From: Pirellulales bacterium
Lineage (GTDB): Bacteria; Planctomycetota; Planctomycetia; Pirellulales; JADZDJ01
Assembly: GCA_963716135.1 (NCBI GenBank)
Contig: OY970289.1
Coordinates: 3,593,207-3,657,206, forward strand
DNA length: 64,000 nt
Direction of reading: 5' to 3'
Under the pieces are notes generated by a model that was not told the origin of the DNA, made no database searches, and saw only the letters and a list, made by a program, of their open reading frames with translations. Shown here piece by piece: positions 24,616 through 57,177 of this stretch. A program made the position numbers and the translations under genes. How positions within the stretch are numbered: position 1 is the first letter of the stretch; each line of letters begins with the position of its first letter.

Positions 24616-24642
24616 GCACTGACTGACCGGGTTTGTCAGTGC
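24616..24642. repeat. Degenerate REP-like hairpin (GCACTGAC-n11-GTCAGTGC) between convergent genes
   Basis: It shares the CACTGAC/GTCAGTG(CC) arms with the palindromes at 43557 and 57091. It lies between stop 24546 (+) and stop 24658 (-). Confidence 0.5.
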
Positions 24643-24657
24643 CAGGCGGCCATCGGC

Positions 24658-26217
24658 TCACACGATGGCGAAATAGTTCTCCACGGCGAAGTCGAAAAAC
24701 TCGTTGGTCAACTGCAACGGCGTGCGTTGAAAGAGGCAATAATTCCGCACTTGCAGCAGCAGATCGCGCGGATGGCAACAGCGGAACGGCCGGCCAACCG
24801 ACTTGTAGTGTTTTTCGATCACGTACTGGATCGCCGGCTCGTTATATTCAAAGCCCAGCCGCGGGCAAAACAGCTTGAACAACTCGCGAAATTCGTCTTC
24901 GGTAGGATCGACGATTTCAATTTTGTAGGGAATGCGGCGCAGGAAGGCGTCGTCGACCAGATCGCGCGGCTCCAGATTGGTCGAGAAGATGATCAACTGG
25001 TCGAAGGGAACCTGCAGCTTTTTGCCGCTGGTCAAATTCAAAAAGTCGTAGCGCTTTTCCAGCGGCACGATCCAGCGATTCAATAATTCGTCGATGCGAA
25101 TGCGCTGGCGACCAAAGTCGTCGATCACCAAGGTGCCGCAATTGCTTTTGAGCTGCATCGGCGCTTCGTTGATGCCCGTGGCGGTGTTGAGCGTGACTTC
25201 CAGATTTTCCATCGTCAATTCGCCGCCGACGACGATGGTGGGGCGGCGGATCCGAACCCAGCGGCGATCGATCTTGTGGCCGTGCAATAGCCCGGTCGTG
25301 GATTTCAGCGGCACTTCCTCGTGATTGCCCGGATCGTACAGGCGGATGATTTCGCCATCGACGCTGATCGCCCGCGGCACCCAAATCGTATTGCCGAAGG
25401 CGCGGGTGACGCGCTCGGCAATGCTGGTTTTTCCGTTGCCGGAGGCGCCGAACAGGAACAAGCCGCGGCCGGAGTTAATGGCCGGCCCGAGGCGGTCCAG
25501 CATCTTGGGACTAATCAGCAAATCGTCGAACGCATGGGCCAGATCAGCGGGCGTGGGATGTTGCTTGGTGATGGATTGCGCCGCCACGCTTTCGTTGTAG
25601 TCCTTCAAGTGTACCGGCGCGGCGCCGAAGTAGGTGCAATGCTCCGTGTGGCGGCGAGCTCGTTCACGACCCAGATCGGTAAGTTGAAACACGTAATCGT
25701 TCATGGGCGCCGCGCTGCGGTGGACGACCCACTGATCCTGCTTCATTTGCCGCAGCAGCTCGTCGATCAGCACGAAGGGCAGCTTGACTTGCTCGGCGCA
25801 TTCGCGGCCTGCAGCATCGCCGCGGGCCAACAGGAACTTGAGGATCAGCGCTTCCACTTCGCTTTCCGGCACTTTCGCTTCGCGAAACGAAGTGGGCTCT
25901 GTCGGAAAAAATGCGTTGGTTGGATCGGCGTCGACGTCGGCGTCTGCGGGTGTCTTTTCCGACGAACTCACCGCGCGCTTGCTGTCGTTGGATTTCGCTT
26001 TTTTCCCAGTTGGCGTGCGATCGGGGCCTTCCTCGGAAGGGGACGGTTCGGCGGTCTGCTTGGCGATCCGCTCCAGGATTTTTTCCAGCCGTGCCTCGCG
26101 CTCTGACTCGGACGACGTGGAACCCGACTTTGCCGGATCAATTTGCGAATCCGACGATTTTTCGCCGATCCGTTCGGCCAACTGGGCAATCAGTTCTTCA
26201 ACAGAAGAGTCAGCCAT
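24658..26217 (-). CDS. AAA-type ATPase of unknown function with an acidic/Lys-rich N-terminal region
   Basis: Walker [13 protein letters not shown], Walker B TLVIDDFG, and ..[23 protein letters not shown]... ATG 26217 ([13 protein letters not shown]) was chosen over the longer ORF start. Confidence 0.8.
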
Positions 26218-26546
26218 GGTGCGGTGGGAAGGTGGAAGGCCGGTCGGTGCGCCGAAACCGAAGCTCACTGCGCCCGATCGGTCGCGGCAAGACGCTCTTG
26301 GCGCGGATCGGGCCAGTTTGGCTGGATGCCAGTCAAATGTAGGTTGGCTCAAGGGTGGGTCAAACGGCCAAGCGCCTACACCTTGTTGCGGGATGCGGAA
26401 ATTAGCGGATATGCCGGTCGTGACAGAAACATTGTCGCGGCAAGGGCCCGCAGACATCCGGCAAACAGACCGCTAAAATGAGGCGTCCGTCAGGCCCGGG
26501 CGTGGTTCGTCACGCCGACCAAGCTCGCTTCGTCTGGAGTTCAATC

Positions 26547-55808: not shown

Positions 55809-56235
55809 GCCACGAGTTTAGCGATGACAGCGGCAATGGCGACAGTGGGCCGACCTTTGACCGCGATTGGCAAGGATTGTGACGATGCCGTCGCCCAGAG
55901 CCACTCAAACCGTGTGGGCAAGCGAAAACATTGCCGCCGCTTGTATGTAATTCTTGCTAGCTGGCATGGCGATAAGACAACGGGCCCGAGTTCGCTGCGG
56001 AAGCGCGAAATCTCTCTAGATCGCCGAATTTGCAACGCAAATAACGAGTTTAGGGGCAAATCCGCTTTGCTGGCAATTCGCCTCGACTTGGACCACAGGT
56101 CGGTATAAAACTTGCATTCCTGCCATGCGGCGGCTGGTCGTTAGTGCCAACGACCCAAGGACGGGAAGCCGCAAGGGTCGGCAAGCGTGGTTCGCGGCCG
56201 GCTCAACACGACGCATAACTCATGGAGTGGATTTC

Positions 56236-57076
56236 ATGTTTGGCATGCATCTGAAACAACCAATGGTTCGATCGATCGCACTTGCAGCCGCTGTGGCGTG
56301 TACCGCGGGATTGGCTTCGGCTCAAACTCCAGAGCCGACGTACTCCGCGGCCGTGGTGCCGCAGCCGCAACAGCATCCGCTGGCGCCGGCCATCGAACTG
56401 GCCACTAAGGTGCAACAAAATGTCGACGGCAATATCCGCGACTATTCCGCCACGATCGAAAAGCGCGAGCAGATCGACGGCAAGTTGGGCGATCCGGAAT
56501 ACGCCATCATCAAGGTTCGCCAACATCCCTTCAGCGTGTACATGTCGTTTTTGGCCCCGGAAAGGCTCAAGGGGCAGGAGTGCATGTACATCGAGGGACA
56601 GAACGACGACAAGATGTTCGCCCACGCTCCGCCGGGCACGCTGCGCGGCAAATTCGGCACCGTGAAGATCTCGCCGACTAGTGCCGGCCATGCAAGGCCA
56701 ACGCTATCCGATCACCGAGCTGGGCATTTCCAACTTGACGCGCAAGCTAATTGAAGTCGGCCAGCACGACATGCAATATGGCGAATGCGAAGTGAAGTTC
56801 TTCCAGAAGGCCAAAGTGAACGGCCGTGAATGCACGGTCATTCAAGTCGTGCATCCCACGCCGCGTCGCAACTTCATCTTCCACATGGCGCGCATCTATC
56901 TCGACGACCAGTTGCAAGTGCCCATCCGCTACGAGGCCTACGATTGGCCGACGGAACCGGGCGGCAAGCCGGTGCTGCTGGAAGAGTACACCTACATGAA
57001 CCTGAAGTTGAACCCGGGACTTACCGACGCCGATTTCGACGTCCGCAACCCGGCATACGGCTTCAACGTGAAGTAG
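56236..57076 (+). CDS. Secreted DUF1571-like protein, paralogue 1, with an apparent frameshift near 56675-56685
   Basis: The signal peptide is MFGMHLKQPMVRSIALAAAVACTAGLASA. ..HPLAPAIELATKVQQNVDGNIRDYSATIEKREQIDGK..PFSVYMSF..GQECMYIEG.., then ..MQGQRYPITELGISNL..RYEAYDWP.. in the ORF 56681 frame. The family name is from memory. Confidence 0.65.
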
Positions 57077-57090
57077 GCGCTGCACTGCCG

Positions 57091-57177
57091 GGTGGCACTG
57101 ACAAGCGCGGCGCTTGTCAGTACAAATCGTCGATGGTTTTCCACTGACAAGCTGACGACAGCTTGTCAGTGCCACCC
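57091..57177. repeat. Composite REP-like element made of two adjacent palindromes sharing the CACTGACAAGC core
   Basis: GGTGGC-ACTGACAAGCGC-g-GCGCTTGTCAGT (57091-57121) and CACTGACAAGCTG-acga-CAGCTTGTCAGTG-CCACC (57142-57176). The outer GGTGGC and GCCACC are also complementary. Confidence 0.9.

Follow-up and report, generated by a model that had tools for sequence, protein, structure and literature searches.

Intergenic palindromes of a Pirellulales bacterium as probable members of a GTAG-like REP/REPIN family found in Planctomycetota

We analyzed a 64,000-nucleotide stretch of DNA from a Pirellulales bacterium (contig OY970289.1 of assembly GCA_963716135.1, positions 3,593,207 to 3,657,206; this whole 64-kb stretch is called the window hereafter), in which short palindromes with a shared core lie between two M16 peptidase genes, between two tandem DUF1571 paralogues and between two convergent genes, one of which encodes a hybrid histidine kinase. 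These palindromes are true copies of a short hairpin-forming mobile repeat of the repetitive extragenic palindromic (REP) type, which occurs here as a single REP as well as an inverted doublet forming one hairpin (REPIN). To our knowledge, REP/REPIN systems and the REP-associated tyrosine transposases (RAYTs) that accompany them have been studied almost only in Proteobacteria.

Three units of the family were found in the window, namely a single REP, an inverted doublet and a decayed doublet, so that three intact and two eroded REPs are present in 64 kb (Table 1). All three units are intergenic. Of the two M16 peptidase genes, the first (42261-43553) has its stop codon 3 nt ahead of the single REP, and the second (43610-44740) has its ATG 16 nt beyond the end of the REP. 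The REP contains a perfect palindrome with 17-nt arms around 1 nt (43557-43591), exactly as read in the preliminary description of this DNA; its stem is lengthened to 17 bp by chance pairing of GTGC in the left flank with the tag, a short conserved end of the unit described below. The intact doublet begins 13 nt past the stop of the first DUF1571 gene, whose last position is 57076, and another 127 nt separate the doublet from the start of the second gene (57305-58051). The two hairpins of the doublet (57096-57122 and 57142-57171) have the common core CACTGACAAGC and different centres (GCGGC versus TGACGACA), and its outer ends, GGGTGGC (57090-57096) and GCCACCC (57171-57177), are complementary, in agreement with the earlier account of two adjacent palindromes whose outer ends can pair. 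The decayed doublet is flanked by the convergent genes 21781-24546 (plus strand, hybrid histidine kinase) and 24658-26457 (minus strand). Its left REP (GGGTGGCAC..GCTTGTCTGTGG) has a badly eroded 5′ arm and a surviving 3′ arm at 24586-24596, and its right REP reads CACTGAC-n11-GTCAGTG with the degenerate tag GCCAGGC. The segment 24616-24642 had been described as a degenerate relative standing by itself; the kinship holds, although the segment is the right half of this doublet and not a stand-alone element.

The core is strongly overrepresented in the window. With at most one mismatch allowed, the 11-mer CACTGACAAGC had 8 matches on both strands of the window, as compared with 0.99 expected, and none of 100 dinucleotide shuffles reached 8 matches; chance palindromes were rejected on these grounds. 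Allowing two mismatches in the window only added background (21 matches versus 15.2 expected). When folded as single-stranded DNA, the single REP gave −20.8 kcal/mol (z −6.8 against shuffles), and the segment 57085-57182 containing the intact doublet formed one long hairpin of −35.7 kcal/mol (z −9.6), while the fold of the decayed doublet was no longer significant against shuffles (z −1.4). Folded as RNA, the single REP and the doublet reached −30.5 and −56.2 kcal/mol, respectively. A scan of the window for the tag followed by any hairpin matched only the three intact REPs. No match was obtained by searching the whole window against Rfam at gathering thresholds, and blastn of the window against the loci listed in the pattern scan described below gave only a distant acnA match. 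The aconitase encoded in the window shows up to 86% identity (90% over 82% of its length) to proteins with named relatives in Pirellulales MAGs, which places the window in Pirellulales. The recurring TDKRGACQWH-like peptides that had been noticed among the open reading frames (ORFs) proved to be the in-frame translation of the palindrome.

One genome per species, 185,579 in all, was searched for the pattern ACTGACAAGC-N0-24-GCTTGTCAGT, which gave at least 113 eight-kb blocks; the copy counts, placement and pairing given below rest on the listed blocks together with the window. When the pattern was relaxed to one mismatch per arm, these sequences contained 192 hairpins, 168 of them with the tag. 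Among the matches listed, tagged copies were found in a limited set of metagenome-assembled genomes (MAGs), nearly all of Planctomycetota, including several Phycisphaeraceae and Phycisphaerales, Phycisphaera sp. RI_212, and the Pirellulales LejiaD_61_23 and SMAG_U5412. The proposal of a dispersed family was thereby borne out for related MAGs: per-MAG copy numbers in the sampled blocks were at least 36, 31, 19 and 18, the first of these in 150 kb of one Phycisphaeraceae MAG. Isolated matches in Streptomyces, Nostoc, Fibrobacter and the like lacked the tag, and these untagged single matches in other phyla look like chance palindromes. No family member was found in 362 kb of metagenomic loci around M16 homologues 42-73% identical to those of the window (taxa unchecked).

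The consensus of the unit was taken from an alignment of 165 copies from the window and related genomes. It is asymmetric: an unpaired 5′ tag, GGGTG(G/C), is followed by an 11-bp stem, CACTGACAAG(G/C), a variable loop of 1-13 nt or more and the return arm, the stem written in full being C-ACTGACAAG-(G/C). The tag occurs on a single side, and its per-position conservation is 92-100% among these copies, which were selected with at most one tag mismatch, and no conservation was seen outside the unit in the alignment. Loops are lineage-specific, for example GGAGTCCGCGGA in some Phycisphaeraceae and 3-nt loops in HK-STAS-PLAN-13, and the loop GCGGC is common to the window and the Pirellulales LejiaD_61_23. 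In addition, many doublets in Phycisphaeraceae LejiaC_69_47 and CSSed162cmB_538 (L018, L023, L024, L096, L036 and L112) have a further conserved stretch beyond the tag, of the form …TCCAACCGTAGC|GGGTGCC… / …GGCACCC|GCTACGGTTGGA…, which includes GTAG and lengthens the inverted repeat; it may belong to a composite element of greater length, or it may be a context favoured for insertion.

Copies of the family are placed almost exclusively between genes. Specifically, 5 of 160 REP copies and 1 of 98 classifiable units lay inside a predicted gene, as compared with approximately 72% of bases predicted to be coding, which bears out the suspected intergenic bias. Among the listed loci, the motif was neither confined to the window nor mostly coding. 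The remaining 97 units lay between convergent (33), tandem (58) and divergent (6) genes; the units are thus located next to gene 3′ ends and are scarce in divergent promoter regions. Both REP orientations relative to transcription occur. When two REPs lay close together, their arrangement was uniform, since all 54 close pairs had the tags outward and none had the reverse order; such doublets were about as common as singlets (54 and 60). In several genomes, the left and the right half of a doublet differ in their loops, always in the same order, and the spacer between them is common to doublets at different loci of one genome. This indicates that copying involves the doublet as a whole, the behaviour by which REPINs are defined.

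The family is associated with a transposase gene. At three listed loci, a pair of REPs with the tags outward, approximately 640-670 bp apart, encloses a gene of approximately 190 amino acids, and the same REP brackets such a gene in a fourth contig (L116), so that a RAYT gene lies between inverted copies of the REP in four other Planctomycetota contigs (Table 1); co-occurrence with RAYTs had been suggested as a check of the REP reading. The products of the genes at the three listed loci scored 87.8, 83.9 and 79.4 bits against the NCBIfam model NF047646 (REP-associated tyrosine transposase, REP_Tyr_transpos; cut-off 80), whereas the IS200 model gave 31.5 and 19.1 bits, below its cut-off of 55, and Pfam gave a weak Y1_Tnp match. 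In the PDB they matched E. coli TnpA-REP (4ER8) best, and the alignment brings the HUH and Y-x-x-NPV motifs into register; the HUH motif PEH(A/V)H(V/L)L as well as the tyrosine motif Y-x-H-x-NPV are invariant among the three proteins.

A profile search returned at least 7,486 RAYT relatives, several of them named from Phycisphaerae or Planctomycetota, and five were examined together with their DNA (L114-L118). Apart from L116, their flanks carried other stems, namely ATGGGTCAAC in L114, ACGGTCAAGC in L115 and ATGGGCAAGC in both L117 and L118, and the tag GGGTG(G/C)C was retained despite these other stems. All eight RAYTs were 52-63% identical to one another irrespective of stem type, so that a grouping of RAYTs by REP stem was rejected. 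In 15 RAYT-associated hairpins, 98.8% of stem cells were paired, and both-sided (compensatory) changes were present in 6 of the 11 stem pairs. Seven copies had a T.G wobble on the tag-bearing strand, where the other strand would have a C.A mismatch. This difference between the strands suggests that the tag strand is the functional one, which would be read as single-stranded DNA. In the variants with an ATGGG stem (L114 9947-9978, L117 and L118), the third stem pair was consistently T.G on the tag strand.

Further hairpins were seen near two of the RAYT genes. Downstream of the gene in L115 (6570-6840) there are two tandem longer hairpin units of approximately 120 nt (…CAAGCCCTCGCGAG…GCGCGAGGGCTTGACCATGCCACCC), the first of which ends in the family tag and the second of which extends past the stretch read; the REP stem has grown much longer in this lineage. 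In L027, an extra untagged hairpin with the same core (GGCTGACAAGCCTTCAAGGCTTGTCAGTGGCAAC) lies between the tagged REP and the RAYT start (6230-6331). No RAYT gene was found in the 64 kb of the window, and a plasmid search for the RAYT gave only 26-29% identical matches in unrelated bacteria, with no sign of a plasmid vehicle.

Table 1. Positions of REP units in the window, of RAYT genes bracketed by the same REP, and of tagged copies in MAGs with labels outside Planctomycetota
Feature	Position or locus	Strand	Sequence or source
Single REP	43557-43593	-	tag-bearing strand GGGTGCC-ACTGACAAGC-GCCGC-GCTTGTCAGT-G
REPIN-type inverted doublet	57090-57177		tags outward; 21 nt between hairpins; folds as one long hairpin
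Left REP of doublet	57090-57123	+	GGGTGGC-ACTGACAAGC-GCGGC-GCTTGTCAGT-a; 1 mismatch, at final stem position
Right REP of doublet	57141-57177	- (tag on minus strand)	GGGTGGC-ACTGACAAGC-TGTCGTCA-GCTTGTCAGT-G
Decayed inverted doublet	24556-24647		GGGTGGCAC...GCTTGTCTGTGG, spacer, CGCACTGAC...GTCAGTGCCAGGC
RAYT with inverted flanking REPs	L031 781-1462		Phycisphaera sp. RI_212
RAYT with inverted flanking REPs	L032 6217-6937		Phycisphaeraceae JTS-RE9
RAYT with inverted flanking REPs	L027 5606-6331		Pirellulales LejiaD_61_23
RAYT with same ACTGACAAGC REP on both sides	L116		RAYT relative from the profile search
Carriers with labels outside Planctomycetota	L002, L046, L095		CAVTLK01
Carriers with labels outside Planctomycetota	L079		CAWELC01
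Carriers with labels outside Planctomycetota	L017, L047, L084		CAZIWT01
Carriers with labels outside Planctomycetota	L075		JANNQV01
Carriers with labels outside Planctomycetota	L030		
Carriers with labels outside Planctomycetota	L037		

Dispersal, extragenic placement and bracketing of RAYT genes together support the REP/BIME-type interpretation (BIME, bacterial interspersed mosaic element) that had been put forward for the palindromes. We conclude, with a probability of roughly 0.85, that the window palindromes are REP elements and that the singlet, the REPIN-type doublet and the decayed doublet all belong to a GTAG-superfamily-like family occurring in Planctomycetota. By analogy with E. coli TnpA-REP (PDB 4ER8), the RAYT would bind the hairpin on the tag-bearing single strand and read the 5′ tag; as in the TnpA-REP and IS200/IS605 paradigm, it would then cut and rejoin single-stranded DNA. 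Acting in trans, the enzyme would thereby copy doublets and singlets to new sites outside genes, probably while the DNA is replicated, and the copies would later decay by mutation. The window spans such a range of decay, with one perfect copy, one copy with a single mismatch and one eroded copy. In E. coli, REPs in mRNA are described as shielding the message that precedes them or lowering expression of the preceding gene. By the same token, the RNA hairpins predicted here (−30 to −56 kcal/mol), which lie 3-13 nt past stop codons, are probable 3′-exonuclease barriers or translation attenuators, and they may shift the relative expression of the two M16 and of the two DUF1571 genes.

The history of the elements was examined by comparison with relatives of the window. 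A 717-kb metagenomic contig (ERZ25039533 contig_57829; loci L200 and L201) is syntenic with window positions 9725-60209 at 90-94% nucleotide identity, and no family member was found in approximately 40 kb of it. At the junction of the M16 genes, L201 (90-93% identical to the window) has an unrelated 33-nt spacer as compared with the 56-nt spacer containing the REP in the window; between the DUF1571 genes, it has 67 nt and no doublet, as compared with 133 nt in the window. A second relative (L202, approximately 80% identical) has neither the single REP nor the doublet, and in more distant relatives with adjacent M16 genes the genes abut without a spacer. Given that both intact sites lack the element in a relative of 90-94% identity, the elements would be recent gains in the lineage of the window or recent losses in that of the relative. 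The possibility that the relatives keep unrelated hairpins at both junctions, as a functional need would require, was also considered and dropped, since the small stems of L202 and L201 were no better than shuffles (z −1.4).

Several points weigh against the conclusion that these are REP elements of a RAYT-served family. The intergenic statistics depend on a crude, purpose-written gene finder based on codon usage, two earlier versions of which were discarded because they put genes on the wrong strand. The intergenic bases flanking both polymorphic sites also differ between the window and its relative, so that there is no clean pair of insertion and empty site. The family might be small in the source lineage, the closest relative available having none in approximately 40 kb. 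The 64-kb window has no RAYT gene, which leaves an active cognate enzyme in the source organism putative, and we know of no case in which RAYT-mediated REPIN transposition has been reconstituted for the present REP family.

Some of these points would also fit fossil REPs, i.e., copies that were once spread by a RAYT, whose enzyme was then lost from the source genome, and that are now inert and decaying. The window is RAYT-free, one of its three units is heavily eroded, and the nearest relative lacks copies in approximately 40 kb. However, the singlet forms a perfect palindrome of 17 bp, and the stems of the doublet contain only one mismatch, as expected of young or maintained copies, and the difference from a 93% identical relative points to recent turnover. 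Absence of a RAYT from 64 kb also says little when RAYTs are usually single-copy per genome (Bertels 2017, PMC5581495). We consider the fossil interpretation possible, though rather unlikely.

A further alternative is that the hairpins are host regulatory structures kept by selection, such as factor-independent terminators, stabilizers of mRNA 3′ ends or sites for host proteins, and that their link with RAYTs is incidental. Their position just downstream of stop codons, their avoidance of divergent promoter regions and the high stability of the RNA hairpins would suit such a role. In addition, the 17-nt tag plus core, GGGTGSC-ACTGACAAG, is identical in genomes from two classes of Planctomycetota with RAYTs that share only 52-58% identity; this could mean constraint beyond the transposase. 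However, an intrinsic (Rho-independent) terminator was rejected, as the 3′ flank of the stem is not T-rich in the 165 aligned copies, no T-run follows the stem, and a consensus terminator scan made no call on the window elements. A fixed-spacing operator was likewise rejected, since a loop varying from 1 to 13 nt or more between the half-sites is incompatible with a fixed dimeric operator on duplex DNA. Regulatory structures would also not be expected to occur in both orientations relative to transcription, to be copied as doublets with their spacers or to bracket a transposase gene in four genomes, and a 93% identical relative manages without them at the same junctions. A purely regulatory origin is therefore very unlikely.

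Miniature inverted-repeat transposable elements (MITEs), i.e., internally deleted derivatives of DDE-type insertion sequences (ISs) with terminal inverted repeats GGGTGSCACTGACAAG that move by cut-and-paste, are scarcely tenable: a doublet of approximately 75-100 bp with 16-17-nt terminal inverted repeats resembles one, but a MITE with target-site duplication was rejected because direct repeats of 3-9 nt flanked none of the 54 doublets (2-nt repeats flanked 4 of 54, about the chance level), half elements are as common as doublets, and the only gene found inside such ends encodes a Y1 HUH transposase of RAYT type rather than a DDE enzyme.

With the REP/REPIN identification adopted, the present family can be compared with known systems. 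GTAG-tagged REP families and their RAYTs were reportedly described by Nunvar in 2010, and the REPIN-RAYT systems of Pseudomonas and Enterobacteria are said to have been set out by Bertels and Rainey in 2011. Catalogues of REPs with GTAG-like tags, together with the matching RAYTs, cover more than 80 species, including the Planctomycetes R. baltica, P. brasiliensis and P. limnophilus, and Opitutus terrae, a bacterium of the Planctomycetes-Verrucomicrobia-Chlamydiae (PVC) group, has a family (GTAG-20) with a GTGG tag variant (PMC3733652). In common with GTAG families, the present family consists of short stem-loops that lie outside genes, carry an unpaired tag on one of their ends and often form pairs of opposite orientation, and it has a cognate IS200-like Y1 transposase gene between two inverted REPs; its tag contains GTGG or GTGC, of which the GTGG variant is the one already recorded (PMC3733652). 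On the other hand, its conserved tag is longer (GGGTG+S) and its stem measures 11 bp, as compared with 6-9 bp in most families (Di Nocera 2013, PMC3733652), and it keeps the tag and the ACTGACAAGC core across two Planctomycetota classes. Neither the text nor the supplements of Di Nocera 2013 (PMC3733652) contain this core; the consensus sequences of the 24 published GTAG families are given in a figure. A literature search for the core sequence returned only unrelated eukaryotic primer or miRNA matches.

The biology of REPINs and RAYTs is well developed for Pseudomonas and Enterobacteria (Bertels 2017, PMC5581495). As in those systems, a pair of inverted REPs folds into one long hairpin and is copied as a whole together with its spacer, perfect and decayed members coexist, and a RAYT gene lies between two REPs; unlike in those systems, the halves of the present doublet have different loops in a fixed left/right order. 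With the BIMEs and TnpA-REP of E. coli, the family has in common the best PDB match of its RAYTs (4ER8) with HUH and catalytic tyrosine motifs, as well as a hairpin with a 5′ tag on one strand, although TnpA-REP has only approximately 25-30% local similarity to the present RAYTs. REPIN-type doublet is a better name for the paired form than BIME in the strict E. coli sense, which involves alternating Y and Z types of REP and defined linkers (RIB/RIP and others) that bind integration host factor (IHF) or gyrase. The IS200/IS605 elements also have a Y1 HUH transposase that recognizes subterminal hairpins on single-stranded DNA without target-site duplication, whereas the present hairpins are massively amplified without the gene, and the present genes fit the RAYT model and stay below the IS200 cut-off. 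In sum, the family matches the GTAG-type REP/REPIN-RAYT kind on every defining feature tested, and it is ordinary in mechanism.

Tagged copies (GGGTGSC-ACTGACAAGC...) were also found in MAGs labelled delta proteobacterium, Thermodesulfobacteriota, Armatimonadota, Bacteroidia and "uncultured bacterium" (Table 1). These could be mislabelled or mis-binned contigs, or they could reflect true spread beyond Planctomycetota. A check of these MAGs with Pfam gave only housekeeping genes, and BLAST showed two of them to be related to each other. If the labels are right and the RAYT alone is insufficient, the family would be either a REPIN lineage of unusual age that a second function in the host keeps from changing, for instance through a conserved host protein or a signal for RNA processing, or a REPIN-RAYT system moving between phyla; we regard this as unlikely. 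Movement between phyla, if true, would contradict the prevailing view of strict vertical inheritance.

Other differences between the window and its relatives were noted along the alignment with L200 and L201. The window segment 17762-24658 (6.9 kb), which contains two genes, including the hybrid histidine kinase, and the decayed doublet, corresponds to approximately 106 bp in L200, the decayed doublet lying exactly at the right-hand edge of the segment; another segment of 3.6 kb (34101-37720) corresponds to approximately 150 bp there. At 14059-14150 there is a hairpin-forming element of approximately 90 bp made of AATGACC(A) repeats, with 30-nt arms that are 90% complementary, which is absent from L200 (13 bp in this 94% identical relative); it is a small insertion in its own right and belongs to another family. 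The intergenic region 49998-50174 contains an inverted repeat with a purine-rich and a pyrimidine-rich arm (AGAAGAGGAGAAGATGAGAAGAGCAGAA ... TTCTCCTCTTCTCCTCTTCTCCTCTTCT), is approximately 178 nt long as compared with approximately 8 nt in L201, and is another hairpin-type insertion. Finally, the first DUF1571 gene (56125-57076) is split over two frames, 56125-56754 covering profile positions 2-80 and 56681-57076 covering positions 83-208. Its orthologue in L201 is intact (280 amino acids), and the split in the window is a frameshift that marks either a pseudogene or an assembly error. Note that the contigs of the relatives are of long-read style and also contain fragmented genes.

As for what these results mean, knowledge of how REP elements work is unchanged: the family is a well-understood genomic passenger in a little-studied phylum and not a new kind of element. 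What is gained is a sequence-level definition of one Planctomycetota REP family, comprising its tag, stem, doublet architecture and cognate transposase. Its consensus can serve as a marker when intergenic regions in MAGs of Pirellulales and Phycisphaerae are annotated; it accounts for the recurrent spurious "TDKRGACQWH" ORFs, and it flags spots where assemblies and operon predictions may be disturbed. Furthermore, the eight RAYT/REP pairs, in which the tag is conserved and the stem varies, offer a natural experiment on how Y1 transposases read hairpins.

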